64,000 bases of DNA, taken from assembly GCF_056712565.1 (NCBI RefSeq), contig NZ_CM160072.1, one strand, 5' to 3'. Shown one piece after another: positions 14,783-34,960 of this stretch; positions within the stretch are counted from its first letter, which is position 1; every line of letters starts with the position of its first letter. Under the pieces are notes generated by a model that did not search any database, was not told the origin of the DNA, and worked only from the letters and a program-made list of their open reading frames with translations. The translations under genes and the position numbers were made by a program.

Positions 14783-14806
14783 CGTGTACATAGAGGTGTA
14801 CATAAT
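14783..14806. repeat. left boundary repeat of integrative element (putative attL or integrase arm-type sites): cgtgtacatagaggtgtacataat
   Basis: Matches 34696..34719 at 22 of 24 positions in direct orientation; contains two 12-bp units with a TGTACA palindromic core; additional degenerate copies at 14814..14836. Confidence 0.6.
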
Positions 14807-14863: not shown

Positions 14864-16132
14864 ATGCCAAAACTCACAGATATGCAGATCCGCGCATGGA
14901 TAAAGGCGGGAGACAGATTTGATGGCAAGGCAGACGGCAACGGCCTTTATATTTGCTACCCCAAAAACTACACAGTCCCGTTCTGGCGATTCCGATATAA
15001 GCTCGCAGGAAAACAGCGGGCTATGGTTATCGGCTCTTACTCCGAACTGTCACTATCAAAAGCCAGAGAAATAGCAAAAGAGCTGTCAGCCAGAGTTGCT
15101 CTTGGCTATGACGTAGCAGCAGAAAAACAGGAACGAAAAGCTGAAGCACTGGCAAAAATGGAGGCTGAGAAAAACGCCATGCGCGTTTCAGATCTGGCCG
15201 CCGAATACTTCGAGCGACAGATACTTCCGAGATGGAAACATCCCGATATCCTTCGCCGGAGAATTGATAAGGATATTAACCCCTGCATTGGGCATATGAA
15301 GGTAGAGGACGTTAAGCCACGCCACATTGACGACATGTTGAAAGGTATCGTTGACCGAGGAGCACCAACGATAGCAACAGATGTATTACGCTGGACACGC
15401 CGTATCTTTGACTATGGGATAAAACGCCACGCTCTGGAGATAAACCCTTGTTCAGCGTTTGAAGTATCTGATGCTGGTGGTAAAGAGGTTTCCCGCGACC
15501 GTTGGCTAACTCGCGATGAGCTTATCAGGCTATTCGAGGCTATGCGCACCGCAAAAGGATTCAGCCGCCAGAACGAACTGACATTTAAGCTATTGCTGGC
15601 ACTATGCGTTCGTAAGATGGAGTTATGCGCCGCACGATGGGAAGAGTTTGATTTAGATGGTGCGGTATGGCATTTGCCGGAAGAACGCAGCAAAAACGGA
15701 GACCCTATTGATATACCTCTACCTTCTCCTGCCGTTGAATGGTTGAGAGAGCTACACACCTTTTCATGTAATAGCGCATGGGTGCTTCCAGCCAGGAAGA
15801 TGCAAAACAGAATGATCCCACATATTCAGGAAAGCACTTTACCCGTAGCACTGGCTAAGGTTCGCGCCGAAATGCCGGATGTGCCTAATTTCACGATTCA
15901 CGACTTCCGGCGTACCGCACGTACTCATTTAGCAGCATTGGGTGTTGATCCTGTCGTAGCGGAACGATGCCTCAATCATCGCATTAAGGGTGTGGAGGGG
16001 ATTTATAACCGCCATCAGTATTTTGATGAGCGTAAAGCTGCGCTGGCACAGTGGGCTGATCTGCTGGTGGCACTGGAAAGCGGGAAAGACTACAACGTAA
16101 CGCCATTCGATAAAGCCCGGAGGCAAATGTGA
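14864..16132 (+). CDS. int: tyrosine site-specific integrase, P4-type (N-terminal arm-binding domain plus catalytic domain)
   Basis: 422 aa from ATG 14864 (MPKLTDMQIRAWIKAGDRFDGKADGNGLYIC...WRFRYKLAGKQR); C-terminal R..HDFRRT...Y catalytic signature (HDFRRTARTHL, IYNRHQY). Confidence 0.85.
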   Translation: MPKLTDMQIRAWIKAGDRFDGKADGNGLYICYPKNYTVPFWRFRYKLAGKQRAMVIGSYSELSLSKAREIAKELSARVALGYDVAAEKQERKAEALAKMEAEKNAMRVSDLAAEYFERQILPRWKHPDILRRRIDKDINPCIGHMKVEDVKPRHIDDMLKGIVDRGAPTIATDVLRWTRRIFDYGIKRHALEINPCSAFEVSDAGGKEVSRDRWLTRDELIRLFEAMRTAKGFSRQNELTFKLLLALCVRKMELCAARWEEFDLDGAVWHLPEERSKNGDPIDIPLPSPAVEWLRELHTFSCNSAWVLPARKMQNRMIPHIQESTLPVALAKVRAEMPDVPNFTIHDFRRTARTHLAALGVDPVVAERCLNHRIKGVEGIYNRHQYFDERKAALAQWADLLVALESGKDYNVTPFDKARRQM

Positions 16133-16779
16133 ACAACATCTTGAGAAAATCGCCAATCGAACGGCTTTGTTCATCTGTATCGATTACCCCTCATGAAATG
16201 GCTGTGGCCTTGGCTGGCCTAAACCCATCTATGCGCATTAGCGATGTGCCTGAGGAAAATTTCGAATATGTCGATTTTGTCAGAACTCATCTTGCCAGAG
16301 CTATCAAGGTGTACAGAGGTGAAAAAACTAGTAAAGACGAGCCTTGCCATGCCCTTGATATTTTCTTAGCTTCTTACCCATTTATTGACACAAATACACC
16401 AGAAATAATTGTTCAGAAAATATCAGAAGCGATTGATGATTTGCGTGGCACCAAGGGCTGGGAAGAAAAAGCCCGAAACCTTGGAGGACTCCAGTTAGTA
16501 AACTACATCAAAGAAACCAACCGCAGCGGACGTGGGCAGCATAGAAAGCAGGATGAGGAAAACGGGACAATGAAAATGATGGGGTTGATAGTACATCTGC
16601 TGATAAAAAAATCAGGCTCATCTTCCTACATCCAAAATGGGAAACCTAATCGCACAGCTATATACCGTGACATAGAAACCTTAATCAAGGATGAAGGGAT
16701 ATCCCATAAAGGAATAGCAAAAGCCACATTCCTAGAAAAAATCTCACGGGCTTTATTAGCTGTCCACGATCTCGACTAA
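16129..16779 (+). CDS. hypothetical protein, translationally coupled to int (GTG start overlapping int stop)
   Basis: 216-aa ORF starting inside the ATGTGA at the int stop; no family recognised. Confidence 0.5.
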   Translation: MNNILRKSPIERLCSSVSITPHEMAVALAGLNPSMRISDVPEENFEYVDFVRTHLARAIKVYRGEKTSKDEPCHALDIFLASYPFIDTNTPEIIVQKISEAIDDLRGTKGWEEKARNLGGLQLVNYIKETNRSGRGQHRKQDEENGTMKMMGLIVHLLIKKSGSSSYIQNGKPNRTAIYRDIETLIKDEGISHKGIAKATFLEKISRALLAVHDLD

Positions 16780-17250
16780 TCACTTTTCACGCCCCTCCAA
16801 AGCAATGGCGGGGCATTACCTGTTTACCCATCTCCACCAGCATAGATAATTCTATGCCTAGCCATTGCTATATCTGTTCGGCTTAGTTCATCTGTAATCA
16901 CCCCATCTCTAAAAGATACGCCAGCTATCATTAGCCATTTTAAGCCATCATGAGCCATTATAAACCGACTCAACCAATTGAATAATAAAAGATAAAAGGA
17001 AATGTAAAAACATGATGAATGACGATGAAAGATATAACTCTTTGATAAAACAATGATTTTTTAAACTGGTAACTAATTGAAAATAAAGAAAATAATTATC
17101 CCACCTGCATTTGCAATCTTTCAGTGGATCGGTATTTTTTCAATAGATTTATAATTTCTTTCAATAGATTCTAGTCTTAATAGAAATACTGTATGGGCAA
17201 CCACTAAACTTTAAGTAACTTCATGAGCTATCAGAGAGGTTACTAGAGAT

Positions 17251-17469
17251 ATGACAGCACACAAGCCAGCATCATCAGCTATCCCAACAACTGGATACAT
17301 CCGTCGCTTTCGCATGCCGGAATTGCTAGGTGTTTCACTGCCTACTATTGATAGATGGGTTAAAAATGGCACTCTTCCACGCCCAGTGAAGCTAACAGAT
17401 AACGTGACTGCGTTTGATGCGGTGGAAATTAATAACTGGCTGGCAGAACGCCGAAACACATCAGCCTGA
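17251..17469 (+). CDS. alpA: AlpA-family phage regulatory protein / excisionase-like HTH protein
   Basis: 72-aa ORF; RFRMPELLGVSLPTIDRWVKNGTLPRPVKL is the typical AlpA/Xis-type HTH signature. Confidence 0.8.
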   Translation: MTAHKPASSAIPTTGYIRRFRMPELLGVSLPTIDRWVKNGTLPRPVKLTDNVTAFDAVEINNWLAERRNTSA

Positions 17470-17543
17470 TTAAATGACTACGGGGGATGACGTTCAACCC
17501 CACCAGCAAACAAAAGTAACTTAATTTAATAGCAGGTGTTTTT

Positions 17544-18242
17544 ATGAAACTGCGAAAAACGCCCGTACAGGGGCAGGGCTTCGTTCGGCCTGAAACCAGC
17601 ATGAGCGATATTCTGGTTCGCCACAAAGCGGAGTCGCGCATTGATTCCCGCTTATTTGCTGAGCGTATTGGCATAAAGCACAAAAACCTTTATTCGCTCA
17701 TTCAGAAGCACAAAACCGGATTGCGTGAACTGGGCATCCTTCCGTTTCAAACGGAGCGATTAAAAACCCGTCAAAACGGGGAGCGTGAACATAAGTTTGC
17801 CCTCCTGAATAGCGATCAGTTTGATTACATGTGTCGCATTGTGCGCGGTCGTGATGATGAACGCATGAACCGCTTCAAGCTGGATGTTACGAAGGCATTC
17901 GCAAAACATCGCGCTACCGAGCCTGTACGCCGTGAATATCTGCCAGGCTATCACGAAAGCCGTGACGGGCTTAAAGCACTGGGCGCAGAACGTCACCATT
18001 ACATCAATCTGGCACGCGCAGAGAACCGTGTTACAGGTCTGGTAACTGGCGAACGAGGCACAGCCAGCGAGCAGCAGTTAGGCTTGCTGATTGTCATGCA
18101 GAAAATCGAACAGGCCGCATTTGAGGAGGCGATACAGAACGGCATGACACCTACCGAAGCAGTGCGGGAGGTTGCCCGACGCATGGAGACATTCGCCAGC
18201 CTGATGACATCTGAGCCGTATCTGGGGGTAAATCATGCTTAA
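17544..18242 (+). CDS. phage regulatory protein, Rha-like
   Basis: 232-aa ORF; N-terminal DSRLFAERIGIKHKNLYSLIQKH resembles the Rha family signature. Confidence 0.5.
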   Translation: MKLRKTPVQGQGFVRPETSMSDILVRHKAESRIDSRLFAERIGIKHKNLYSLIQKHKTGLRELGILPFQTERLKTRQNGEREHKFALLNSDQFDYMCRIVRGRDDERMNRFKLDVTKAFAKHRATEPVRREYLPGYHESRDGLKALGAERHHYINLARAENRVTGLVTGERGTASEQQLGLLIVMQKIEQAAFEEAIQNGMTPTEAVREVARRMETFASLMTSEPYLGVNHA

Positions 18243-18978
18243 GGATTTCGCCGCACTTATTCCGGTATCACCTGGCATTATTGGCGGACATGAAACAGCC
18301 ATTGTCAGCGCCAGAGCGTTACATAAGGCGCTTGGTGTGAAGCGTGATTTCACTACATGGATTAAAGGGCGTATTGATCAGTACGGATTTAAAAATGGCG
18401 TGGATTTTGAGTTTGTAGAAAATTTGACCTCCCCCAATCCGGTGAGCGCAAAATCTCGCCAACGTGTAGAGCACGACTACCTGAGTACCATCAACATGGC
18501 GAAAGAACTTGCGATGGTCGAGCGTACCGAACAGGGCCGCGCTATTCGTCAGTACTTCATCAAATGCGAGGAGGAGCTACACAAAGTAGCGCCAGTGCGT
18601 TCCGCAGCGTTACGCCGTGAACTGAAAGCCCGTATCACCGTTGCCAGCTACTTTAAGCCGATGTGTGCCGCGCTGGAGGCGTACCGCGCTGAACTGGGTA
18701 AAAACACGCTCCAGCACCACTACACCACGGAAGCCAATATGCTGGCGCGTATCGTGCTGGGTGGCATGACTGCAAAACAGTGGGCGCAGGCGAACGGCAT
18801 CACAGGCGAACCACGCGACCACATGAGCACGCTGCAGCTTGAGCACCTTTCTTACCTTGAGCAGAGCAATATCACGCTGATTGAGTTAGGCCAGGACTAC
18901 CACCAGCGGAAAGCTGAATTAATTCGTCTTTCGCAACGCTGGTTAGCCCGCCGCATGGAGGTGAGCAGCCATGCGTAA
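18235..18978 (+). CDS. phage antirepressor, AntA/KilAC-type
   Basis: 247-aa ORF; ARALHKALGVKRDFTTWIKGRIDQYGFKNGVDFEF resembles the AntA N-domain; start overlaps the stop of the upstream gene. Confidence 0.55.
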   Translation: MLKDFAALIPVSPGIIGGHETAIVSARALHKALGVKRDFTTWIKGRIDQYGFKNGVDFEFVENLTSPNPVSAKSRQRVEHDYLSTINMAKELAMVERTEQGRAIRQYFIKCEEELHKVAPVRSAALRRELKARITVASYFKPMCAALEAYRAELGKNTLQHHYTTEANMLARIVLGGMTAKQWAQANGITGEPRDHMSTLQLEHLSYLEQSNITLIELGQDYHQRKAELIRLSQRWLARRMEVSSHA

Positions 18979-19528
18979 ACCTGTCTTTTATGCCGGGCGC
19001 ACTGAAATCTCTGTCATTAAATTCGATGACATTCAGGTGCGCATAGTGAGTATCAACGGCGAGCCGTGGTTTGTTGGCGCTGATGTGTGTGCTGCGCTGG
19101 AAATCAGCAATGTTACTGATGCTGTTTCAGTTCTGGATAACGACGAGGTAATGACCCTAGCTTTAACCGAGGGGCATTCCGGTAAGCGTGGTGGTGCCAG
19201 AAGCTGGAATGTTGTCTCTGAATCAGGTTTCTACAAACTGATCGCCCGCAGCCGTAAAGCTTCCACACCTGGCACATTTGCGCACCGTTTCAGTAACTGG
19301 GTATTCCGCGAGGTTATTCCTTCAATCCGCAAAACGGGGAGTTATGGTGTTCCGTTTGCCATGCTGAATGATTTCAGTAAACGCCAGGCTGCATATCAAC
19401 AGGAAGCCAGCAAACGCGGTTACAGGTTACAGCAATGCAAAGAGGCAAAAGATGCACTGGAACGAGAAGAGCGGGCGCTATGGCGTAAATATCAGCCTGA
19501 TTTTCTGGAGGGTGAAAGCAATGTGTAA
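18971..19528 (+). CDS. Bro-N domain protein (phage antirepressor-like)
   Basis: 185-aa ORF; FDDIQVRIVSINGEPWFVGADVCAALEISN is a Bro-N-like signature. Confidence 0.55.
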   Translation: MRKPVFYAGRTEISVIKFDDIQVRIVSINGEPWFVGADVCAALEISNVTDAVSVLDNDEVMTLALTEGHSGKRGGARSWNVVSESGFYKLIARSRKASTPGTFAHRFSNWVFREVIPSIRKTGSYGVPFAMLNDFSKRQAAYQQEASKRGYRLQQCKEAKDALEREERALWRKYQPDFLEGESNV

Positions 19529-19696
19529 CGATCCGAACGTTACAGAAAGAAAAAGCGCCCCGTTGCTGGATAACAGGCAAAACAAAGGCGACCGGGATAG
19601 GTCGCCAGTGGGAACAAAGGAAATCAAACGCATCGCCAACAATGCCAGATTTGCGGCTGGTGGGCAATGTGATCAGTGTGCTGGCTTGCTGGTGGG

Positions 19697-19894
19697 CTAT
19701 TCCTGCTCTTTAGCATCGCCATACTGCGATGTTTTCCAGGTATGCGATCCCATTTTTGTGCGCCTGTACTCTTTTAAGAACTTCTCAAGGACAAACGCAC
19801 ATGGCGCAAATCTTTCCTGTTCTTGTTCGCTTACCGCATTTTTGCGTTGTTTTTTCCTGGATGAGGATAATTTCTTTAATGATTTGTCAGTCAT
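19697..19894 (-). CDS. small hypothetical protein (65 aa), tandem paralog 1, C-terminal ...GDAKEQE
   Basis: Same length and C-terminal KEQE tail as neighbouring ORF; 3-prime DNA similarity (tcctgctcttt); leftward, divergent from the replication operon. Confidence 0.45.
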   Translation of the reverse strand: MTDKSLKKLSSSRKKQRKNAVSEQEQERFAPCAFVLEKFLKEYRRTKMGSHTWKTSQYGDAKEQE

Positions 19895-19951: not shown

Positions 19952-20149
19952 TTACTCCTGCTCTTTGGCCTTCCGGCGCTGTTCATATTTTAATTTGCGT
20001 CCACAGGCATCTAAGACCCATGCGGAAAAATTAGCACTAGGATTAGTTAATTTTTCTTGTTCAACACTGGCATCAATCCCATCTATAAGCTCGTGCGGGA
20101 ATCGAATATTTTTCTTTGCTGATTTGTTGTTTGTGTTTCCGCTAGACAT
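19952..20149 (-). CDS. small hypothetical protein (65 aa), tandem paralog 2, possible DNA-binding regulator
   Basis: MSSGNTNNKSAKKNIRFPHELIDGIDASVEQEK...; adjacent to palindromic operator-like sites at 20178..20257. Confidence 0.45.
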   Translation of the reverse strand: MSSGNTNNKSAKKNIRFPHELIDGIDASVEQEKLTNPSANFSAWVLDACGRKLKYEQRRKAKEQE

Positions 20150-20177
20150 TGGTACACCTCACTTAAATGGATTTGAT

Positions 20178-20257
20178 GGGCGCACACAATACAGCAAAAA
20201 AAGTGAGAAGTTAAGTATTGACATGTGCGCACACATGATTTTAATCTGTGCGCACAG
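20178..20257. promoter_or_regulatory. operator-like region: three copies of palindrome TGTGCGCACA (core 20224..20233; perfect 12-bp palindrome ctgtgcgcacag 20246..20257; half-site copy 20178..20188)
   Basis: Read directly; palindromes bracket a near-consensus promoter. Confidence 0.6.
20218..20245 (+). promoter_or_regulatory. candidate sigma70 promoter of the rightward replication operon (TTGACA, 16 bp, TTTAAT)
   Basis: Perfect -35 hexamer at 20218..20223; -10-like tttaat at 20240..20245; overlapped by operator palindromes. Confidence 0.45.
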
Positions 20258-20354
20258 TTTGGGTTGCATTGCTCAAATTAAGCAACGCCCCGCAGTGCTC
20301 GCAACACATGCAGGGCGTCTAACCACCAACGATAGAAAGCGTATCGAGGTAGCT

Positions 20355-20558
20355 ATGTTAAATCATACCACACACCCGCAAGGGCGGGACTCGCACAACC
20401 TGAATAAATACATCTGGCGTTTTATCGCCCTGAGCACCGCACAACCACGCGTAATACACATCGAGGCCGCCAGCGAACAGGAAGCCCGTCAGCAATCCCC
20501 GGCTGGCTGCGTGATGGTATTTACTGCCCGCATCCGTCAGGGGGAATACTATGCGTGA
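20355..20558 (+). CDS. possible small ORF (67 aa) downstream of switch promoter; stop overlaps start of next gene
   Basis: ATG at 20355 in the frame of a long, otherwise implausible ORF-track ORF; translational coupling (ATGCGTGATGA) to the 85-aa gene. Confidence 0.25.
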   Translation: MLNHTTHPQGRDSHNLNKYIWRFIALSTAQPRVIHIEAASEQEARQQSPAGCVMVFTARIRQGEYYA

Positions 20559-20808
20559 TGAACGATTTATTCTTCTGGAGCAAAAATTCAGTGAAGCGCC
20601 AAAAAATGAAATTGATGCTCTTTTGCATATCGCGAATATGCTAAAAGTAGCAACGTTCCTTATAGTTTCGAATCTGGAGCATGAAACGGCGTTAGATATA
20701 CTGAACAGTGCTGTCGATTATTCTGAATATATTGCCGAGGATAAATACAGGCAATTACCAGATTTGTTAGCCCATAAATATAAAGAAGAACCTCACACCG
20801 GGAAATAA
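20551..20808 (+). CDS. hypothetical protein (85 aa)
   Basis: ORF in operon context upstream of replication gene. Confidence 0.45.
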   Translation: MRDERFILLEQKFSEAPKNEIDALLHIANMLKVATFLIVSNLEHETALDILNSAVDYSEYIAEDKYRQLPDLLAHKYKEEPHTGK

Positions 20809-20810
20809 AC

Positions 20811-21113
20811 ATGAAGAAGATTAAATTTACTGGCTTAAATGCCAGCGGACAGACTCACCCGAAAATCAGGATCGGGGATATTTTCCGGGATAAATATGGT
20901 GACAGCGTGGTTATTAATTCCGTGTATGAACGGCACATTACATACCGCCGCGCAGGGTACGACTATGACTGTGTGATGCCCGTTCATCAGTTCCGGCGTG
21001 ATTTTTCACTGGTATGTGCAGTACCACGCAGTAAGCCCACCAGTAAAGAGAAAGCACGGGCAAATATTCAGGTAATAAAGAACATGATTAACGCATTCAG
21101 GGGCAAGAAATGA
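20811..21113 (+). CDS. hypothetical protein (100 aa)
   Basis: ORF tightly packed between 85-aa ORF and replication gene (overlap ATGA at 21110). Confidence 0.45.
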   Translation: MKKIKFTGLNASGQTHPKIRIGDIFRDKYGDSVVINSVYERHITYRRAGYDYDCVMPVHQFRRDFSLVCAVPRSKPTSKEKARANIQVIKNMINAFRGKK

Positions 21114-23236
21114 AACGCGCACCGAATTTAAAGCACCAGCCGAAAGACAAAATGACGGAGGTGATTATCTTTGCGGGTAGTGATGCCTGGGCACATGCGA
21201 AAGAGTGGAGCGAATGGGCCGGAAAGCATATTGCGGCAGATGATACACATCCAGTTATTCTTGGACCGGAACAACTGGCGAGTCTGGCAGACACGCAAAT
21301 CATCGACAAAGGGCGCTATTACGTGCGCGTTTATCGTGCTGGTGAAATATCAGAGCAGCACCTTACACAGATAGCGACACTGCTTGCAGTGGCGGGTGTG
21401 AAGGAGGCGCGTTGCTACCGCAGCTTTGTTGATCAGCAGCCGGAGGACTGGACACCGCGCATGGCTGGACTGAAGGATGATGCGGAACGCGGTAACAGTC
21501 TGGTGATCAACCTTCCGGCGAAGACAAATTTCACCGGAAATTATGATGACGAATTAAAGCCTCGTGTTGAAAGTCGCGTCGATGGTGTTTTCTGGGTAAC
21601 GCCCAAAGTGGACAAGCAGTCAGGCGAAATTATCCGGCCTGAGACGTGGTTATGTTCTCCGCTTGAACTACTGGGAACAGGAACAATCGGCAAAGAGCAT
21701 TACCGCGTGATGCGCTGGAAAAAACCAGCAAACCATGAGGTCATTACAATGGCGGTCCCGTGCGGAGGCATTGGTGACCGTGACGGCTGGCGGTTGCTGA
21801 AAGACCACGGCCTTAACGTGACGACCAACGGCAAATACAGGGCTATCCTGGCTGACTGGATGCAGTTAAGCGGAAACCATGAGGAATGGCAGTTAAGCAC
21901 AACAACGGGGTGGCATTTTGGTGCGTACATCATGCCGGATGGTTCGGTCATTGGTGAATCAGAGAAACCCATCCTGTTTACCGGAAAAACTGCCGCTGTT
22001 AATGGCTATTCCGTGGCGGGAACAGCGGAGGGCTGGCGCGATACCGTGGCACGGCTGGCTGGTGGTAATCCGTCCATGATGCTGGGTGTGGCGGTATCGC
22101 TATCCGCACCATTAATCGGGCTGGTGGGTGCTGACGGCTTCGGGGTTCATCTTTTTGAGCAATCATCAGCAGGTAAAACCACCACACAGAACATTGCATC
22201 AAGTTTATGGGGAGAGCCGGACGCGCAACGGCTGACCTGGTACGGAACGGCGTTAGGTATCGCCAACGAGGCCGAAGCACATAATGACGGGCTGTTACCC
22301 CTGGATGAAATAGGCCAGGCCGGAAACGCGCGGGAGGTGTCCACGTCAGCCTATACGCTGTTTAACGGTTCCGGGAAATTACAGGGGGCGAAGGACGGCG
22401 GCAACAGGGAGATAAAACACTGGCGCACGGTGGCAATCAGCACCGGAGAAATGGACGTTGAAACATTCCTCAAAACGGAAGGGATAAAAATTAAAGCGGG
22501 GCAGCTTGTCCGTCTGCTTAACGTGCCGATGGAAAAGGCATCGCAGTTTCACGAATACAGCACCGGAAAGGCGCACGCAGACGCGTTAAAAGATGCCTGG
22601 ACAGAAAATCACGGGGCGGCAGGTCGTGAGTGGGTTAAATGGCTGGCAGGTCACCAGCAGGAGGCAAAGGACGCGGTAAGGGCATGTCGCGAGCGGTGGC
22701 GCAACCTGATACCGGAGAGCTACGGCGAGCAGGTTCACCGTGTGGGGGAAAGATTCGCCGTACTGGAGGCCGCGCTTGTGCTTTCCGGTCATGTTACAGG
22801 CTGGGATGTTCAGGCGTGCCGTGATGCAGTTCAGCATAACTTTAATGCCTGGGTGAAGGAATTCGGCACGGGCAACAGGGAATTTAAACAGATGGTTGAA
22901 CAGGCTGAGGCGTTTTTGTCGTCGTTCGGGTTCAGTCGATACCTTCCCTATCCAAACAGCGACGAGCGTGATTTACCGATTAAAGACCTTGCCGGATACA
23001 GAAAGGGGAGTATCAGAAACGAAGATGACGAGTTCCGTTTTTACACGTTCCCGCATGTGTTTGAGGGTGAGATAGCACAGGGATTTAATCCGTCTCACTT
23101 TGCCCGCGCGTTGAGTGCTGCCGGAATGCTGGAAGCGGGAGGCGACCGCCGTTACAAGAAAAAGGCGCTCGGCAGGATTGGCGGGAAGCAGCATATTTTT
23201 TACGTGCTGATGTTCCAGCCTGAAGCAGAAGATTAA
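21110..23236 (+). CDS. putative replication initiator: primase/helicase-like protein with P-loop motif (possibly DUF927-type)
   Basis: 708-aa ORF; P-loop-like FEQSSAGKTTTQ; followed immediately by iteron-like repeats and ssb. Confidence 0.55.
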   Translation: MKRAPNLKHQPKDKMTEVIIFAGSDAWAHAKEWSEWAGKHIAADDTHPVILGPEQLASLADTQIIDKGRYYVRVYRAGEISEQHLTQIATLLAVAGVKEARCYRSFVDQQPEDWTPRMAGLKDDAERGNSLVINLPAKTNFTGNYDDELKPRVESRVDGVFWVTPKVDKQSGEIIRPETWLCSPLELLGTGTIGKEHYRVMRWKKPANHEVITMAVPCGGIGDRDGWRLLKDHGLNVTTNGKYRAILADWMQLSGNHEEWQLSTTTGWHFGAYIMPDGSVIGESEKPILFTGKTAAVNGYSVAGTAEGWRDTVARLAGGNPSMMLGVAVSLSAPLIGLVGADGFGVHLFEQSSAGKTTTQNIASSLWGEPDAQRLTWYGTALGIANEAEAHNDGLLPLDEIGQAGNAREVSTSAYTLFNGSGKLQGAKDGGNREIKHWRTVAISTGEMDVETFLKTEGIKIKAGQLVRLLNVPMEKASQFHEYSTGKAHADALKDAWTENHGAAGREWVKWLAGHQQEAKDAVRACRERWRNLIPESYGEQVHRVGERFAVLEAALVLSGHVTGWDVQACRDAVQHNFNAWVKEFGTGNREFKQMVEQAEAFLSSFGFSRYLPYPNSDERDLPIKDLAGYRKGSIRNEDDEFRFYTFPHVFEGEIAQGFNPSHFARALSAAGMLEAGGDRRYKKKALGRIGGKQHIFYVLMFQPEAED

Positions 23237-23260
23237 CTTCCCTGTGTGAGGTAAAAAGTT

Positions 23261-23383
23261 GCGGGTTATGCGGGTTATCCTGTGCATAAGTTAATTAACT
23301 GCATGATTAAAAAGGAAATCAATAACCCGCACGTAACCCGCAAAACGGCAGTTATAACCCGCAAATGTGCGATTGTAACCCGC
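23261..23383. repeat. iteron-like cluster 1: two direct GCGGGTTAT copies (23261..23278) plus four inverted (A/G)TAACCCGC copies (23322..23383); candidate origin
   Basis: Read directly from sequence; between the replication protein gene and ssb. Confidence 0.7.
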
Positions 23384-23446
23384 AAAATTTCACTGTAAGA
23401 GTGTAAACAAGCGTAACTATCACGTTAAAACCGGAGAACAAACAGC

Positions 23447-23869
23447 ATGACGGCGCAAATATCAGCTTACGGGCGGCTGGTGGCTGACCCGCAGTTAAAG
23501 ACCACCAGCAAGGGCACACAAATGGCGATGGCGAGTATGGCGGTCCCCCTTCCATGCAATCAGGCAGATGACGGAACGGCGACGATGTGGTTATCCGTCC
23601 TGGCGTTTGGCAGACAGGCCGACGCACTGGCAAAACACCACAAAGGCGAACTGGTGAGCGTGGCGGGTAACATGCAGGTAAGCCAGTGGACAGGCCAGAA
23701 CGGCGAAACGCGGCAGGGCTGGCAGGTTATCGCAGACAGCGTAATCAGTGCGAGAACGGCGCGACCGGGCGGCAAAAAAGGCCAGCAAGGGCAGGCTACT
23801 GACGCACTGAACAGGGCAAAACAACAGGCGGGTAACGACGATCCGTACGGGGACGGGATACCGTTTTAA
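23447..23869 (+). CDS. ssb: single-stranded DNA-binding protein (SSB)
   Basis: 140-aa ORF with OB-fold-like N-terminus, Gly/Gln-rich linker and acidic C-terminal tip ...DDPYGDGIPF typical of SSB. Confidence 0.75.
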   Translation: MTAQISAYGRLVADPQLKTTSKGTQMAMASMAVPLPCNQADDGTATMWLSVLAFGRQADALAKHHKGELVSVAGNMQVSQWTGQNGETRQGWQVIADSVISARTARPGGKKGQQGQATDALNRAKQQAGNDDPYGDGIPF

Positions 23870-23905
23870 TTCACAACAGCGAACAGAGTAATTACAGGGG
23901 AAGGC

Positions 23906-24403
23906 ATGACAAAGCTGACCATAAACAGAAAACCGAAGGGCATTTACGGCACGCCGCAGAAAACAGCACAGGCGGCGCAGCAGCAGAATAAAACCACATC
24001 GGCGCATAAAGTGATGCCAGATAACCAGAACACACAGCAGAAGCTCACAGGAGCAACACCGCGGCGGCGTATGACCAAACAGCAGCGTAAAAACCGCAGA
24101 CGCGTTAACCGTCTTATTGAGCTATGGCCTGAATTATTCAGCCCGGAATCACCTAAGCCGCTTAAGGTGGGGATATTTGACGACCTGATACAGGATATTG
24201 CCGCGAGAGGTATTTCACTCGGACAGGGAACACTACGCGCAACGCTGGCGCGTTATGTGCAGACTCCGCGCTATTACCGCGCCCTGGTAGCTGGTGGCGC
24301 GCGTTACGACCTGAAAGGCCAGCCGTGCGGCGAGGTAACACCACTACAACAGACGCACGCAGGAAAACTACTGGAGGAGATGAATGGAAATAGTAAGAAA
24401 TGA
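23906..24403 (+). CDS. FinO/ProQ-domain RNA-binding protein
   Basis: 165-aa ORF; [82 protein letters not shown] matches the FinO/ProQ N-terminal domain pattern (PLKIGI...LR.AL..YT.S..YL....GA.R.DL.G...G.V). Confidence 0.7.
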
Positions 24404-24800
24404 TCACGCACATGGTCGCCGTGCAGGTGATCACATTGTGGATGAAATGGCGGAAAAACAAAGAGTTGACATTATTGTCAGTGTCACAGTCGAGAGCGCG
24501 AAGCGCCAAAATAAGCGTATAAATGATCGTTCAGATGTACATGGTGTGATCACTCGTTTACGCCAGACTTTTGTAACTCGTGAAGAGATGATTGAAGCTA
24601 TTGACCAGCATACAGCATGTATCAGCGTCAGGGATATACCGGAGGTCATTGCTAACTACTTCATGATCACCAGACGCCTTTACCGGAGAAAAGACAAGAG
24701 CACGGTTAACCGTCTCCTGATGTCTGATATTCGCGAATACCTGCAAGAAAGGGGCTATGTGAATCCACCAGAACAGCGCTACGGAAGAGTCGGAGGCTAA
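24384..24800 (+). CDS. hypothetical protein (138 aa), start overlaps FinO-like gene
   Basis: ORF with 20-bp overlap with upstream gene; no family recognised. Confidence 0.4.
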
Positions 24801-25166
24801 CTAAAACCCTGTACCGAAGAGCGGCGGCGCGATGGGGTGAAGTAATGCAGTTGGGAAACTGATAAGGAACGGTATTACATATCAATGCGACGACTGGAAT
24901 GTTCCAGGAAGGCACAGAGGCCACCGAAGCAACCGGATAATTTAGAAGACCTGAAACGGTCGCTTAAACGCACTGAAAAAGAAATGGGGATAGATGGGAT
25001 CGGGAAATCAGTATGGCGTAACTACCAGAAGTAAGCACAGAGCCGGAGCAATCCGGCTTTTTTTGGGGCTGAAATCAATCAATCTGTTTTTGTGATAGAA
25101 ATATGTTTATCTACCACTTTTTCAGATCAATAATGTGCATAGTTTAGTCAGTAAGAGGAAATTGCT

Positions 25167-25469: not shown

Positions 25470-28001
25470 ATGCCAGTCGTACCAACAGTATCCGGACGTC
25501 AGGTTGAGAGCCGTGGAGTTCAGTCAGCAGGCTTGCAGACGTTTTCTCAGCCAGGTATTAGTGATGCTTTTGTTCGTGCAGGAGCAGAGGCAATTGATGT
25601 TCTGGGTCAGGCAAAACAGCGTGCCAATATTGCCTTGGTTCAGGAGGCATCCCTTAAACTCAGTCAGACAGGCAGTGATCTGCTGAATAATCCTGAAACA
25701 GGATTGCTTAACCTGAAAGGGAAAAATGCTATTGGAAAAGGCCATGAGTATACGCAGCAGTTTGATGCTCAGGTCGAACAACTGGCTATGTCGCTGCCGG
25801 ATGAACAGGCCCGTAATGCTTTCATGCAGCAGGCACAGCAGCAGCGCATTCAGTTCACTACGCAGGCCGGGCGGTACGAGATCGGGCAAATAAATGCCTA
25901 CGAAGAAGGCCAGTTTCAGGCTACGCTGCTGAACAATGGTAAAAATGCCGCAGCATTGTATGGCGACAACGCCGCATACGTATTGGCTAATAAGCAAACT
26001 TTCCAGCAAATTGAGGAGTACGGCATTGCGCATGGCTGGAGCGACGAGCAGATTCGGGCCAGGAAAATCGAGTTTAAAGAAGCAACAGCAAAAGCAACTG
26101 CTCAAAATGCTATTGGAGCAAACTATCTTCAGGTAAGACAGCAAAACGGCGAGTTAAGCGATACTGCTGCTGGAGCTCGCCGTGCTGTAGCAGATAGTGG
26201 ATCTTCCGATCGTACCCGCGGTATACGCAACAATAACCCCGGCAATCTTGAATACAGCAAAACTAATCCGTGGGTTGGGCAGACTGGTGATGATGGTCGC
26301 TTTGCTAAATTCGAAACACCTGAACACGGTATTCGTGCATTAGGGCGGAACCTGATGTCGTATCAGCGGCAGGGTATTGATACCGTCAGCGAGATAATTA
26401 ATCGCTGGGCACCGCCTACTGATAAAAATGACACTATGTCGTATATCAAAGCAGTGTGCGAACAACTTGGCGTTTCTGCTGATGATCCTATAGATGCATC
26501 TAATCCGGATACCCTGAAGGCGCTTTGTGCAGCCATTATCCATCATGAAAACGGTAGCCAGCCATACAGTGATCAGCAGTTAACTGCAGGTGTTAGTGCT
26601 GCGCTGGGGCTTTCTCAGCTACCGACAAAAAATAAACGTTATACCGGTGTAGCCTGGTTCGATGCTTTAAGTGAATCGGATCAGGCCAGCGTGTTGCGAC
26701 AGACTGATGCACTAGCCAGACAACAGCAGGCTGAATATAAAACGATGCTCGACAGCCAGGTTCGCGATGCGACAGCTGCGTATATGCGTGGCGTTGAATT
26801 TCCTAACCCACCAGGTGAGGCTGATTTTATTGCAGCTTATGGCGTCAGAGAAGGAAACCTGCGATATACCGAGTTCAGAAATACGCAGATCGCCGGACAG
26901 TATATAGGCTCTTTCCGCAACATGCCGACAAGCAGCATTACCGCATATGTTGAGCAATTGCGCCCGGATACTGGTGAAACAGGGGAGGGGTATGCGTCTC
27001 GTGCGAAGTTATTCGACCGGGTATCGGCGGCAGCCACGAAGGTAATAACCCAGAGGCAGAATAATCCGTTTAGTGCAGCGGTGGAAATCGGAGCCTATAA
27101 GCCGATCACCAGCAACAACCCTGACGACATCACTGCCGAGGTGGCTAACCGTTTCTCGTCGCAGGAAAGCTTACGCGCGTTGGGAATTAATGCCCCAATC
27201 CTCAACAGTGAAGAGGCGGCTGCGCTGGCACAGCAGGTGCGCGGCACTCAAAACGTTGACCAGACAATTAAACTGTTGCAGAGCATGGGGGAAAAGCTAC
27301 CTGCGCCAGCAATACGGCAGGTGGCATCTGTAATTGCTCCGAACAGTGCAGCAACAGCCTATTCTGCGCTGCTGCTGGGCACGCCGGATAATCAGTACGA
27401 TAACACCAGGCCGTCGATCCCATATAGTCAGTTCATCGGGTATAAGCCGACGATGAACAAGTACGACGTTGCAAAGGTTATTCTTTCCGGTGACCAACTA
27501 CTGAATCCGACGAAGGCTATGAAGAATGCGGGCATAACTCCGGTACAGTTGCCGAGCGAAGATAAAATGAAGCGCGCTTTCGACGAACAGGTTGGTAATG
27601 CATTTGCCCGTAACCCAGAGACGCGCCAGATCAGTTATAGCCTTTTCAAAGCCGCTTACGCAGGAATCGCTTATCAGTCTGGTAATGCGTCTATGACGAG
27701 CACAGATGCGGTTAACTCCGATGTGGCGGAGAAAGCTGCGCAGTACGCAACAGGCGGTGTATACAAGAGATTTAATGGTGGTGATGTTGTAATGCCTTTC
27801 GGCATGGATGAATCCACTTTCAAAGATCGCTATACCACATCAGCGAAACAAGCACTGAAAGATGCCGGACTTAACGTAAATGCAGTGTCAAACTTCACAC
27901 CAGTTAATATCGGCAATAACCGGTATCGGCTGGTAAATGGTAGCGGACGCTGGGCAACAGATCCCAGAACCAATGAAGCTATTGTCGTGAGGGTTGAATA
28001 A
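25470..28001 (+). CDS. large hypothetical protein A (843 aa), Q/A-rich, with conserved central segment GIRNNNPGNLEYSKTNPWVGQ...WAPPTDKNDT...HHENG
   Basis: Strong SD (aggagg) 8 nt upstream of ATG; stop overlaps next start (TAATG). Composition resembles phage internal virion / ejection or polyvalent proteins; no family confidently assigned. Confidence 0.6.
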   Translation: MPVVPTVSGRQVESRGVQSAGLQTFSQPGISDAFVRAGAEAIDVLGQAKQRANIALVQEASLKLSQTGSDLLNNPETGLLNLKGKNAIGKGHEYTQQFDAQVEQLAMSLPDEQARNAFMQQAQQQRIQFTTQAGRYEIGQINAYEEGQFQATLLNNGKNAAALYGDNAAYVLANKQTFQQIEEYGIAHGWSDEQIRARKIEFKEATAKATAQNAIGANYLQVRQQNGELSDTAAGARRAVADSGSSDRTRGIRNNNPGNLEYSKTNPWVGQTGDDGRFAKFETPEHGIRALGRNLMSYQRQGIDTVSEIINRWAPPTDKNDTMSYIKAVCEQLGVSADDPIDASNPDTLKALCAAIIHHENGSQPYSDQQLTAGVSAALGLSQLPTKNKRYTGVAWFDALSESDQASVLRQTDALARQQQAEYKTMLDSQVRDATAAYMRGVEFPNPPGEADFIAAYGVREGNLRYTEFRNTQIAGQYIGSFRNMPTSSITAYVEQLRPDTGETGEGYASRAKLFDRVSAAATKVITQRQNNPFSAAVEIGAYKPITSNNPDDITAEVANRFSSQESLRALGINAPILNSEEAAALAQQVRGTQNVDQTIKLLQSMGEKLPAPAIRQVASVIAPNSAATAYSALLLGTPDNQYDNTRPSIPYSQFIGYKPTMNKYDVAKVILSGDQLLNPTKAMKNAGITPVQLPSEDKMKRAFDEQVGNAFARNPETRQISYSLFKAAYAGIAYQSGNASMTSTDAVNSDVAEKAAQYATGGVYKRFNGGDVVMPFGMDESTFKDRYTTSAKQALKDAGLNVNAVSNFTPVNIGNNRYRLVNGSGRWATDPRTNEAIVVRVE

Positions 28002-30061
28002 TGTCTGATGTTTTTTCTTTGGCTCCAGAAGGTCAGGCATGGATTGACGACAAAACAGTTGCCAACCCAGCAAGGCCAGAAGACTACGATCCGACTCCCT
28101 TCCAGGGTTCAGGTACTGCACTTTTGAGCGGCGTGGCGGAGGGGGCTCTCGGTCTCGCGCAGTCTGCCGTCGGATTCAGCAAGCGCCTGATTAGCGATCC
28201 GGCATTTACCGCAGACGTGGCACCGACTGTTAATATTTTTCGGGAGATGTTCCCTGATGCTGACAAAACACTGAATGATACATACGACACGATCGGAAAA
28301 CAGTTACAGGATGCCCGCAGCTATGTGAAGCCTGATGCAGGCAGTCAGGGAATGGCGGCTGAGGTATTAAATGAGCTTGGTAAATTTGTTCCTGCAATCG
28401 GAACAACTATGTTTGGCGGTCCCCTCATCGGCGCTGCTACAGCTTTCAGTTCTACGTATGAGCAGTCCTATCAGGATTTTAAAGGGAAGGGAGTAGACGA
28501 GGCTACGGCGCGTAACCTGGCAACGCAGCAAAGCCTTTTCAATGCTGTGGGTATGGCCTTACCCGCTGCCGTCGGCACCACACTGGCAACGCGCATTGCC
28601 TCAGGTGTGGCAATCAACACCGGATTCGGTGGACTGAACCGTTACTCTGTCGGCGCAACACTGGAGGAAAAAGGCTACACGGAGATGGCAAAACAGTACC
28701 GGGTATTTGACGGTCAGGCGATGTTAGTCGATGCCGTTTTAGGCGGGGTCTTTGGTGGCGTTCATCACCTGACTACCCATAATAACCATGATGGTACAGA
28801 GTCGAACATTTCTGCAGAAGAAATAAAATCAACTTTTGGTGAACATTATCAGCAATCTCCTGATGGTAACATTGAGTCAATGGTTCGTGATTTATCTGAT
28901 TCAGGAGTAATAGAACTTATTAATGAACCAGCAATAAAAAATAGTGATGGAGAAATACTTCTGAATAAAGGTCATGTGACAGTAGCTTCTGGAAAAGAAC
29001 CAATAATAAGAATAAATATTAATGGATTAAAAGATCATGAAGAACTGTTAGAAACCCTTCATCACGAGGCGCTTCATCTTGAGCAGCGCCATTACCCTGA
29101 CTGGAAGGCCAGAAAGCTAGCTAATGCTGTACTTAAATCTGCAAACAAGCATTCTGACTATCCTGAATTTGCATATGGGATGTCACAATATTATGAATAT
29201 AAGAAAAGGGGTGAGTACCCTGAAACATATCCTGAGTGGTTGTACGCTGAAGAAGTTGCCGCACATGCAGTAAATCCATCTCTAAAGACAAGCGTTTCAT
29301 CATGGGAAAAAATTATTTCAGGTTTTAAAGCCTATATATTCAGATACAGTGGTATTCAGGTTGGAACCGTTACACCTGAGCAGTTACGGTTACTCGTAAG
29401 TATGCGTCTTCGCAATATGAAACTGGAAGCCGCAGTCGAAAAAGTTTTTGGTATCCGGGCAAGGGAAAGAATAAAACCAAGCGATATTGATGCAGCCCAC
29501 ATTTTGAATGAGGGGCTTCATTACGATATTGAATCGTCACCAGTGCTTCACACCAGCAATGAGAGCATCAACAGCCATGTTGACGCCATGGATGAAGCAT
29601 ACAGGCAACTTAATGATGGTCAGCCTGTAAATGTTGGGGGGATGGCGCGAGGGCTTGATGGTCCATTGCGATCAGATATATCTGATACTTACCAAGAGCA
29701 ATACCATGAAATACAAAAGGTTTTTGAAGAAAATGGTGTCAGATATGAAACATCATCAGAGCCAATTAGTGAATCGCCTGTCCCTCGTGCTGAAAGTGCT
29801 TTCTCATCGGCTGGTGAACACAGAGGGGACGTCAGCGTTGATCCAGATACAGGGCAGGTTCTCTCATCCAACAGCTATGACCTTATGGCTGCCAGAGACA
29901 TGGCTGTTGCCAATCCTGAGCTGACTATAGCTCACCCGGAAACCGGAAACCCGACAAAACTTTCTGATCTCCTGGCTGAGTTGGATGAACAGATTAAGAC
30001 AGTCCAGAACGAATCGAAGGTTTATTCTGTAGCGGCAGCGTGCTTCTTGAGGAACCCATAA
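28001..30061 (+). CDS. large hypothetical protein B (686 aa) with glycine-zipper-like hydrophobic N-terminal region and HExxH zinc-metallopeptidase motif (LHHEALHLEQRH)
   Basis: Translationally coupled on both sides; HEALH motif encoded within a conspicuously AT-rich segment (about 28790..29350). Confidence 0.6.
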   Translation: MSDVFSLAPEGQAWIDDKTVANPARPEDYDPTPFQGSGTALLSGVAEGALGLAQSAVGFSKRLISDPAFTADVAPTVNIFREMFPDADKTLNDTYDTIGKQLQDARSYVKPDAGSQGMAAEVLNELGKFVPAIGTTMFGGPLIGAATAFSSTYEQSYQDFKGKGVDEATARNLATQQSLFNAVGMALPAAVGTTLATRIASGVAINTGFGGLNRYSVGATLEEKGYTEMAKQYRVFDGQAMLVDAVLGGVFGGVHHLTTHNNHDGTESNISAEEIKSTFGEHYQQSPDGNIESMVRDLSDSGVIELINEPAIKNSDGEILLNKGHVTVASGKEPIIRININGLKDHEELLETLHHEALHLEQRHYPDWKARKLANAVLKSANKHSDYPEFAYGMSQYYEYKKRGEYPETYPEWLYAEEVAAHAVNPSLKTSVSSWEKIISGFKAYIFRYSGIQVGTVTPEQLRLLVSMRLRNMKLEAAVEKVFGIRARERIKPSDIDAAHILNEGLHYDIESSPVLHTSNESINSHVDAMDEAYRQLNDGQPVNVGGMARGLDGPLRSDISDTYQEQYHEIQKVFEENGVRYETSSEPISESPVPRAESAFSSAGEHRGDVSVDPDTGQVLSSNSYDLMAARDMAVANPELTIAHPETGNPTKLSDLLAELDEQIKTVQNESKVYSVAAACFLRNP

Positions 30062-33528: not shown

Positions 33529-34156
33529 AAAAGCCCGCTGCACGGTTTTATTAATACTTATACCATTAGGATTGATCCTTCAATGGACAATCCTTCCATC
33601 GTGTGGCCAGCCATTCATATTCTTTGTCTTTTCTTCAGTACCGGCTTTGCATCTTCTACACCCTGAAAGATGTCGTTTTATGGTGTATCTGATGATTTAT
33701 TCCCTAACAATAGATATTCGAAAAATTAATCAGTTAAAACAATTATTTGGATAATTTCAGGTAAAAACTATCTTAATCTTCTGGTGGATCTCAATGCGCC
33801 GTGACGGTATCGGGATTAAGGGCGTGGATATTCGCGATATATGCCGCTACACCCCTCAACAGTAATAGATATGCGCTTTTCACGCTCTCCTTTCACTGCT
33901 GAGAACGGCAACAACGTGCCACAGGAACGCGCTGTAATCGATTCTGACGCACTTAATTGCGTTGGGTAATGGTTTGCCAGCCTGTGGGGGTAACTCTGTT
34001 TTATGAGGCTTTGGCTATAGTGCAAAAATGCACTTTGTCTTGCCTCTCAATTTGATGAGACTGGAACGACAACAGGACAGACCACCAGCAACAGTTACCG
34101 TATTCAGCCGTTCTGTGGCACCAGTGGAACTATCCACCCCTGCTTTCAGCAATGTG

Positions 34157-34311
34157 TTTGCGGGTTATTTTGGGGCGTTTGCGGGTTATTTGGGATGTTT
34201 TGCGGGTTATGCGATGCTTGAATAATGAACAGTGCATTTTGCAACATATTGATACTAAAGAACAAAAAATAGTTAGCACACTAAGATAACCCGGTAACCC
34301 GCATAACCCGC
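34157..34311. repeat. iteron-like cluster 2: three direct TTTGCGGGTTAT copies at 21-bp spacing (34157..34210) plus three contiguous inverted TAACCCG(C/G) copies (34286..34311)
   Basis: Read directly; same 9-mer as cluster 1, about 11 kb away near the right end of the element. Confidence 0.7.
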
Positions 34312-34695
34312 ACTGTTTTGTATATATATACGAAAAATTGCATTCAGGAGGGGGGATCGAAATCCCTACAACCCATTGCTTATGGGACCGCCGCCTCGTC
34401 AAATTTTTACACCCGCGAAATAAAAAATACTTCACGCTGGTGGGCATGATGCTGATATGAGAGGCTTCCATAACGCCACCATTCGAAACTATGCAAATCT
34501 GCATAGAAAAGGGGATGCCTGATACAATACCCTCGCCCGATAAAATCACACCGATAAACTCATCTGCCACGAGTAGAAAGAGCGAACGAACCCGATACGC
34601 AGTAATGCTGGTCGGGTCCAGCTTTTTAAGGCGGCTGTAGATATCAGGCCATCCGTGATCATCCACCAGCGTAATTGCTGAACGCTTTAAAAAAA

Positions 34696-34719
34696 CGTGT
34701 ACATAAGGGTGTACATAAT
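34696..34719. repeat. right boundary repeat of integrative element (putative attR or arm-type sites): cgtgtacataagggtgtacataat
   Basis: 22 of 24 identity with 14783..14806, direct orientation. Confidence 0.6.
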
Positions 34720-34960
34720 CAAAAACCGCATTAGAAAGAAACCAGATACAATGCGGCATTGAAGCCAACACTCTACAAACAGATCCAGAACATTGAATAA
34801 CTCGTAACGCCAATTCTTCCTTTTCAGCCTTCACAAATGCCGCCCACTCAAACAGAGCGGCATTTTTCCTCCCCGCAACATTCAATTCTGTTTTGCGTGC
34901 CTGCTCCAGATTTTGCGATGTTTTTTTGCCCAGCGCAGTGAGAACGTGAGATACTCACAA

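Follow-up and report, generated by a model that had tools for sequence, protein, structure and literature searches.

We report that four plus-strand genes at positions 17251-19528 of a stretch of the Escherichia coli chromosome (64,000 nucleotides of contig NZ_CM160072.1, assembly GCF_056712565.1; hereafter the window), namely an alpA gene followed by Rha-, AntA- and Bro-N-family regulator genes, very probably hold the so-called Bro zone of a satellite of the phage-inducible chromosomal island (PICI) type. The module, a Bro zone joined to the last gene of the integration zone, alpA, has been described before; the island that carries it is a new member. The explanation that best accounts for the evidence as a whole, to which we give a probability of about 0.6, is that this PICI-type Bro zone encodes DNA-binding regulators that are made after a helper phage has been sensed. 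The claim about molecular role taken by itself, that the three proteins would act as DNA-binding regulators at satellite and/or helper promoters, is one on which we would offer even odds.

Gram-negative PICIs share a plan of four ordered zones, Integration, Bro, Replication and Late (PMC10111431). The Integration zone consists of int and AlpA, the Replication zone of a primase and a single-stranded DNA-binding protein (SSB), and the Late zone of captured helper late genes. The Bro zone is a dynamic region of proteins that belong to the Bro-N network and swap domains, with Pfam families that include AntA, Bro-N, Phage_pRha, Phage_ASH, ANT and KilA-N. According to the same work, an alpA gene adjoining an inward-facing int is a signature of PICIs that is absent from prophages.

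The island follows this plan. It is an insertion of 20,125 bp between yicC and dinD, in the 3' end of yicC, and alignment to the empty yicC-dinD site of strain K-12 places both junctions at 21-bp repeats (CAGATCCAGAAyATyGAATAA) that correspond to the last 21 nt of yicC. The gene order begins with an integrase, a hypothetical protein of 216 aa and alpA, continues with the Rha, AntA and Bro-N genes and two small minus-strand genes, and then runs through genes for an Icd-like protein, an 85-aa protein, a DUF4222 protein, a DUF927 helicase, SSB, a ProQ/FinO-like protein, a 138-aa protein and a frameshifted PerC to a right part of three large and two small open reading frames (ORFs). As expected of Gram-negative PICIs (Fillol-Salom 2018; de Sousa 2023), a site-specific integrase lies at one end with att repeats; the alpA-type regulator adjoins int and shares its strand with int and the downstream genes; and the Phage_pRha, AntA and Bro-N genes lie between alpA, which ends at 17469, and the Icd-like/DUF927 operon, which starts at 20223.

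The identity of the four genes, which had been proposed in a first-pass annotation made from the sequence alone, is borne out by Pfam, PHROGs and RefSeq. In Pfam the alpA product matches Phage_AlpA (6.9e-6) and the helix-turn-helix (HTH) family HTH_17 (6.2e-5), the Rha protein matches Phage_pRha (7.4e-7, residues 33-120), the AntA protein AntA (8.9e-23, residues 24-98) and the Bro-N protein Bro-N (9e-18, residues 22-117). PHROGs classes them as an excisionase/regulator (phrog_66), a Rha-like regulator, anti-repressor Ant (4.9e-37) and an anti-repressor (phrog_2593, 3.1e-55), respectively, and the RefSeq annotation of identical islands uses the same names for all four. The three regulators belong to large families that are conserved at full length in the Enterobacterales (829 clusters for AntA and 235 for Rha), and the four ORFs are real genes rather than chance reading frames. 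There are overlaps of 8 nt at rha/antA and again at antA/bro and a gap of 74 nt between alpA and rha, and no plus-strand terminator was predicted from alpA through to bro. The full-length architecture of AntA is found, at a protein coverage of at least 80%, in one of 769 matching phage records, implying that it is mainly an island feature. Paralogy of Rha and AntA was considered and rejected, as BLASTP gave no match and a profile comparison aligned only an N-terminal leader of 27 aa. In sequence searches for relatives of solved structure, neither Rha nor Bro-N had a match, and the apolipoprotein matches of AntA were due to chance.

That annotation had further held the element to be of the satellite type and regulator stacks after alpA to be typical of satellites. 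Both views stand, the first through the four-zone plan and homology to the PICI EcCIMP1, the second through the equivalence of the stack to a Bro zone (PMC10111431) and the placing of its orthologues after alpA in other genera: the Rha orthologues of Morganella and the AntA orthologues of Serratia and Yersinia occupy this same place in islands that run from int and alpA to a primase.

The stack also undergoes the shuffling of domains and cassettes expected among related elements (PMC10111431; Iyer et al. 2002) and is a swappable, fast-evolving cassette set. Sister islands integrated at tRNA-Gly have the same backbone, another int/alpA pair and either Rha, AntA and Bro-N or AntA and Bro-N only. 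Exchange with other islands has its junction just 3' of alpA, near 17500, and swaps of the integration zone take the 216-aa hypothetical protein along with int and alpA. Where Rha is absent, long forms of AntA directly follow alpA, and residues 1-27 of these are residues 1-27 of Rha. In strain TUM9803, which has its island at the same yicC site, a gene of the GIY-YIG nuclease family replaces AntA, of which only the final ~20 codons remain. The Bro trio of one island variant, L008, is 98% identical in nucleotide sequence to that of the window. Conserved cassette junctions fall at 17544-17625 and 18915-18978 of the window, at 5036-5812 of variant L007 and at 5045-5869 of variant L009.

The element had been described in the first-pass annotation as having no structural genes, and this was mistaken. 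The three large ORFs of the right part belong to virion protein families: 25470-28001 to phrog_992 (2e-298), 28001-30061 to phrog_1145 (2e-136) and 30040-32817 to phrog_684 (6e-295). In epsilon15-like prophages of E. coli the homologous genes come after a gene for a 'T7 gp14 family virion core protein', from which we infer that the three encode internal virion (ejection) proteins. Salmonella phage E15 (Uetakevirus) has a protein with 80% identity to the product of the first, and the first 1.4 kb of the late zone is 96% identical in nucleotide sequence to the gp15 homologue of the epsilon15-like prophage, a carrier of the K1 endosialidase, in the avian pathogenic E. coli (APEC) strain O1. These matches are consistent with a late zone that arose by capture of late genes from a helper, and they point to an epsilon15-like temperate podophage in that role. 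Podophage satellites seem to carry ejection proteins that match their helpers, those of the present island being of the epsilon15 type and those of EcCIMP1 resembling the proteins of Kapi1.

Among 5,426 complete E. coli genomes, 17 hold the island at a query coverage of at least 80% and 507 hold a structural module of the epsilon15-like prophage type. The island is identical in the extraintestinal pathogenic E. coli (ExPEC) strains XM and PU-1 and 99.9% identical in APEC E18055, the one island-bearing strain for which an epsilon15-like K1 prophage, adjoining guaA, has been confirmed. That prophage (NZ_CP126940.1, 1451809-1492257) has a P22-like immI-type region of its own, with an Arc-family protein and a protein with a 'phage antirepressor N-terminal domain', and further encodes a Bro-N protein, a YafO toxin and a K1 endosialidase tailspike. 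The Bro-N domain of the island has ~50% identity with N15 gp30 and likewise with the Bro-N protein found in an epsilon15-like prophage; a special kinship with the Bro-N protein of the helper-type prophage was rejected, an identity of 50% being no higher than that to N15 gp30.

How the stack might work is best approached from the PICIs that have been studied experimentally. EcCIMP1, from E. coli MP1, excises, circularises and is transduced only upon induction of the podophage Kapi1, and its mobilisation needs its own alpA, the promoter of which is activated by the helper, whereas DNA damage does not activate it (PMC11773190). Expression of alpA in EcCICFT073 is likewise dependent on the helper and independent of the SOS response, and the existence of a master repressor in Gram-negative PICIs has been termed unclear (PMC6092414). 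By analogy with the alpA reporters of these two elements, the AT-rich region upstream of alpA in the window is a candidate for a helper-responsive promoter autoregulated by AlpA. We propose that the helper would be sensed at this promoter, with alpA as the helper-responsive master activator or excisionase-type gene. The rha, antA and bro genes would seem to belong to the same transcription unit as alpA and to be translationally coupled, and would then be made only once the helper has turned alpA on. Since they lie downstream of alpA and the PICIs tested sense the helper at the alpA promoter, they would be outputs rather than sensors, and the proposal in the first-pass annotation of a 'helper-phage sensing module' becomes unlikely (PMC6092414, PMC11773190). 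All three products would most likely bind DNA and reprogramme the replication and late operon of the satellite, genes of the helper, or both, and as a fast-evolving, cassette-swapping set they probably tune the satellite to particular helpers.

A DNA-binding role is suggested by predicted structure. The AlphaFold models of Rha and AntA, each with an N-terminal module of the winged-helix type and a helical C-terminal domain, find their best match in the DNA-binding protein DdrC, and Bro-N can be likened to them through its equivalent Pfam module. The AntA, Bro-N and pRha domains are interchangeable N-terminal modules, and in the Listeria protein AriS the AntA module regulates genes of its own phage, with the other activity residing in the KilAC domain (PMC9043618). 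Pfam finds one domain in each of the three island proteins and neither ANT/KilAC (PF03374) nor P22_AR_N/P22_AR_C in any of them. The label 'antirepressor' given to the three in the earlier annotation is thus unproven: it is the family name of N-terminal modules of a DNA-binding type, the hidden Markov model search gave no ANT/KilAC or P22_AR domain, and the models of Rha and AntA resemble DdrC.

Several points weigh against the interpretation offered here. P1/P7 Ant, which has an AntA domain, and other members of these families act as antirepressors through protein contacts, and a protein-binding role of the three is possible. The match to DdrC is a moderate similarity of fold at 14-18% identity between predicted models, by which sequence-specific DNA binding is not proven. 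A simple promoter scan gave no strong sigma-70 promoter directly upstream of alpA. Neither PHROGs nor NCBIfam recognised genes for the hijacking of packaging (terS, capsid morphogenesis or rpp/ppi) in the island, which in scoring of the SatelliteFinder type would be only a 'Type C' PICI, as EcCIMP1 is. The DUF927 protein lacks the Zn-ribbon/TOPRIM primase N-terminus of its relatives, its first ~146 residues being unrelated. Excision, helper dependence and packaging are attributed to the island by homology to EcCIMP1 and from the epsilon15-like prophage of an island-bearing strain, and in the literature we found no experiment that dealt with the island itself or with a Bro-zone gene from any E. 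coli PICI.

A first alternative is that the proteins are true antirepressors, at least one of which would target the CI-type repressor encoded by a resident prophage, epsilon15-like or other, bind it and so induce the helper; the satellite would in this way set off or strengthen the lytic growth of its helper. The models are the epsilon protein of P4, which acts on the P2 C repressor, and P1 Ant, which acts on C1. The family names and the PHROG annotations speak for this, as does the occurrence of AntA as the N-terminal domain of P1/P7 Ant (PMC9043618); an Ash/epsilon antirepressor is a core gene of P4-like satellites (PMC10085698), Phage_ASH genes occur in the same zone of EcCIMP1 and the Morganella relatives, and an island-bearing strain has a resident prophage with a CI-like repressor, WP_000836290. 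Nevertheless, no ANT/KilAC, P22_AR or Phage_ASH domain is present in any of the three, and the timing is awkward, for if the genes need a helper-activated alpA then the helper has already been induced. The DNA-binding resemblance of the Rha and AntA folds also tells against it, as does EcCIMP1, which left the induction and lytic replication of its helper unaltered. On balance we consider this alternative unlikely.

A second alternative turns on the two small minus-strand genes that follow the stack. One of these encodes a YlcI/YnfO-family protein, WP_000094456, that, from its sequence pattern, looks like a ribbon-helix-helix (RHH) DNA-binding protein. Beside this divergent gene, three palindromes (TGTGCGCACA) surround a TTGACA promoter that faces the Icd-like/DUF927 operon. 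In variants L007 and L008 the YlcI protein is only 39% identical to that of the window, and the three sites keep their positions and differ in sequence, being of the type TGTAAGACA in L007 and TGGGCCACA in L008. As L008 has a near-identical Bro trio but a different YlcI protein and different operators, operator specificity tracks the small protein and not the Bro proteins. The co-variation suggests that the replication and late genes are governed by an 'immunity' switch of repressor and operator. The switch region spans 19952-20260 in the window, 6745-7030 in L007 and 7412-7700 in L008. A PICI lineage silenced by its own YlcI/YnfO repressor at three operators, with silencing lifted by alpA-driven Rha, AntA and Bro-N or by read-through after the helper has been sensed, is rather unlikely in our estimation; were it true, the lineage would differ from the Gram-negative PICIs described so far, which have no known master repressor, the YlcI/operator variants would amount to immunity types and the whole to a cascade in two steps, in which the 'activator' logic of Gram-negative PICIs meets the 'repressor/antirepressor' logic found in SaPIs, the pathogenicity islands of Staphylococcus aureus. 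The candidate RHH repressor with its co-varying operators is the most interesting lead to come from this work.

The stricter form of this idea, that the three proteins inactivate the island's own YlcI/YnfO RHH-like repressor and thereby open the replication and late operon after alpA, gains from the location of a repressor-operator-like switch directly beside the stack, from the joint change of operator sequence and YlcI variant across three island variants, and from the convergence of the alpA operon on the minus-strand small genes with no plus-strand terminator. It is distinctly unlikely all the same. The Bro trio of L008, despite its 98% nucleotide identity, accompanies a YlcI protein of 39% identity and different operators, implying that a specific pairing of antirepressor and repressor is not conserved; read-through from alpA could have the same effect with no antirepressor; EcCIMP1 has AntA and no annotated YlcI gene; and the function of the RHH protein as a repressor is itself putative.

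Next, the genes may be selfish or interfering cassettes, derived from homing endonucleases, that spread by recombination or harm the helper or competing phages and do not regulate the cycle of the satellite. The GIY-YIG gene in the AntA slot of an otherwise near-identical island, with recombination junctions conserved, the varying presence of Rha between close relatives, the reported nuclease relationships and domain swapping (PMC10111431), and the contribution of EcCIMP1 to superinfection immunity are all consistent with this idea. It is improbable, however, given that AntA is, with the primase, the most conserved gene of EcCIMP1-like elements and keeps its place after alpA across genera, and that Pfam finds no nuclease domains in the three proteins. 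Cargo in the form of a defence system was also rejected: PADLOC, run on the island proteins other than Rha, AntA and Bro-N, gave no match, and the large ORFs among them proved to encode virion proteins.

That the element is no satellite, and the regulators are leftovers of a decayed prophage or an integrative mobilizable element, might be argued from the presence of phage virion genes beside unrecognised packaging genes and from the occurrence of SSB and ProQ/FinO in plasmid leading regions too, but it can scarcely be so, given intact att sites and integrase, the PICI signature of alpA adjoining an inward-facing int (PMC10111431), the same backbone at a second integration site with another integrase, homology to the validated EcCIMP1, and, for the mobilizable element (PIME) that was rejected, no matches to tra, trb or relaxase genes in PHROG and NCBIfam scans of the island proteins (oriT was not searched for).

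We return to the PICI-type reading for the remaining zones, the features of which are collected in Table 1. In the reconstructed attP of the circular form, the doubled GTGTACATA copies lie ~130 bp and 83 bp from the core. This is close to the spacing of 132/81 bp in another, helper-embedded clade of PICI integrases, for which a similar layout of arm motifs has been described and deemed peculiar to the clade (PMC10111431). The DUF927 gene (21110-23236) encodes 708 aa, as compared with 918 aa for the EcCIMP1 primase and ~900-930 aa for the Morganella and Serratia relatives; its product matches phrog_1139 'DNA primase' (2e-174) and is named DUF927 domain-containing in RefSeq. The origins of Gram-negative PICIs are located downstream of pri (PMC10111431), and the iteron-like arrays 3' of the DUF927 gene are likely, from their sequence and position, to be the origin. 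Arrays of TGCGGGTTA/TAACCCGCA with a 21-bp period recur at 34156-34312, near the right end of the island, within a minus-strand ORF of 251 aa that spans attR and is probably no real gene. The 138-aa protein has a weak terminase-like PHROG match, the sole hint of packaging; a terminase role was rejected, as the match is weak and Pfam and NCBIfam give nothing.

Table 1. Position, strand and description of features of the island within the window
Feature	Position	Strand	Remarks
attL core, final 21 nt of yicC, CAGATCCAGAATATCGAATAA	14655..14675	+	Direct repeat with 34780-34800
Doubled GTGTACATA motif, left copy, candidate integrase arm-type site	14783..14806	+	24-nt direct repeat
Tyrosine integrase	14864..16132	+	phrog_1, 3.8e-64; RefSeq annotation
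216-aa hypothetical protein, integration zone	16129..16779	+	phrog_30524, 3e-34
AT-rich region upstream of alpA	16780..17250	+	TTTCAATAGATT repeats at 17135-17170 around TATAAT
AlpA-like HTH regulator/excisionase	17251..17469	+	72 aa; closes integration zone; Phage_AlpA, phrog_66
Rha-family Bro-network protein, predicted winged helix and helical domain	17544..18242	+	232 aa
AntA-family member of the Bro network, part of the zone's conserved core	18235..18978	+	247 aa
Bro-N domain protein, short helical tail	18971..19528	+	185 aa; Pfam, PHROG
Intrinsic-terminator-like hairpin serving the minus-strand small genes	19587..19606	-	No T-run on plus strand
Conserved 65-aa small protein	19697..19894	-	phrog_21027, 6e-46; RefSeq-annotated
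YlcI/YnfO-family (DUF3950) small protein, candidate RHH repressor	19952..20149	-	YlcI_YnfO_N, 3.5e-16 (NCBIfam); Pfam DUF3950
Three TG(T/G)GCGCACA palindromes, candidate operators	20177..20256 (20177, 20224, 20247)		From sequence
Icd-like, 85-aa, DUF4222 and DUF927 helicase genes	20223..23236	+	Replication zone
TGCGGGTTA/TAACCCGCA iteron-like arrays, candidate origin	23260..23387		3' of DUF927 gene
SSB, ProQ/FinO-like, 138-aa protein, frameshifted PerC	23447..25023	+	
Late zone, three epsilon15-type internal virion (ejection/core) genes	25470..32817	+	843, 686 and 925 aa
Doubled GTGTACATA motif, right copy	34696..34719	+	Pairs with 14783-14806
attR core	34780..34800	+	Direct repeat with attL; K-12 alignment

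Outside the island, a tRNA-SeC gene (selC), a classic site of island integration, lies near the end of the window at 60580-60674. An ORF that starts inside it (60598-61764) has no NCBIfam match, and the GC content falls to 0.34 at 62-63 kb.

The stack is a textbook case of a recently described satellite module, and for none of the Bro-zone proteins of E. coli PICIs has a role been assigned by experiment. The island should prove a handy system in which to study such proteins. It is present in sequenced K1 strains of APEC and ExPEC, has a plausible helper in the epsilon15-like endosialidase prophage of APEC E18055, and comes with natural variants: with or without Rha, with AntA or GIY-YIG, and with three types of operator and repressor. 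Knowledge of the targets of the three proteins would make clear in what way a podophage satellite is tied to its helper and whether the 'antirepressor' annotation of AntA, Bro-N and Rha misleads. For annotation more generally, regulator stacks after alpA mark PICI-type satellites, and large 'hypothetical' genes downstream of them can be captured helper ejection proteins.

Amongst known elements, EcCIMP1 provides the fullest parallel. Among EcCIMP1-like elements, conservation is highest for the genes of the antirepressor, Ash and the primase (PMC11773190). The AntA proteins of the two islands are 60% identical over their full length, and the DUF927 protein and the C-terminal 560 aa of the EcCIMP1 primase share 62% identity; both islands, of ~20 kb, run in the order int, alpA, AntA, DUF4222/Icd-like, DUF927, PerC and podophage ejection-protein genes, and neither has terS or capsid genes. 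Unlike the present island, EcCIMP1 has a single AntA gene plus an Ash gene, without Rha or Bro-N, together with a full TOPRIM primase, a tRNA-Thr integration site and a second copy of alpA; its ejection proteins resemble those of Kapi1 and not those of epsilon15, and it has no annotated genes of the YlcI type.

With the PICI Bro zone as described (PMC10111431), the stack shares its position between int/alpA and primase/SSB, its content of pRha, AntA and Bro-N domains, the swapping of domains and cassettes, and the company of a late zone of captured helper late genes. It differs in having a divergent pair of small genes with palindromic operators and no detected C4 or IsrK RNA. Only some members have an immunity RNA embedded in the Bro zone (PMC10111431). 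A scan of 14000-36000 with Rfam at E<=1 found none (P4 CI/seqA, Rfam C4 or IsrK), and the alpA-rha spacer, taken with the leader, is no more stably folded than its shuffles (z -0.99); an immunity RNA of the P4/P1 type in or near the stack was rejected on these two results. The examples consulted in PMC10111431 include neither an integration site in the 3' end of yicC nor ejection genes of the epsilon15 type.

The resemblance to P4 lies in the order of an alpA-like gene, Bro-network genes and a primase/helicase, and in the precedent of a regulator that the satellite encodes and directs at its helper, epsilon inactivating the C repressor of P2. The early region of P4 comprises a vis/alpA homologue, eta/kil, the CI RNA, the epsilon/Ash antirepressor and the alpha primase. 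Unlike P4, the island has no ORF that PHROGs, NCBIfam or RefSeq would name as a homologue of psu, delta, sid or Ash/epsilon and no detected CI/seqA RNA, and its type of helper is different.

AriS and P1/P7 Ant carry an ANT/KilAC C-terminal domain, the bearer of SOS-inhibiting and antirepressor-associated activity, that is missing from the three island proteins, but they draw on the same three interchangeable N-terminal modules, and their AntA module acts on genes of the element that encodes it. The best experimental precedent is CapR of the Vibrio PICI-like element (PLE) (PMC10111431). Unlike the situation in our island, it is a lytic phage that induces the PLE, and CapR has its origin in a homing endonuclease; as a satellite-encoded, Bro-network-related protein that binds DNA and represses a gene of the helper, CapR nevertheless resembles what we propose for Rha, AntA and Bro-N.

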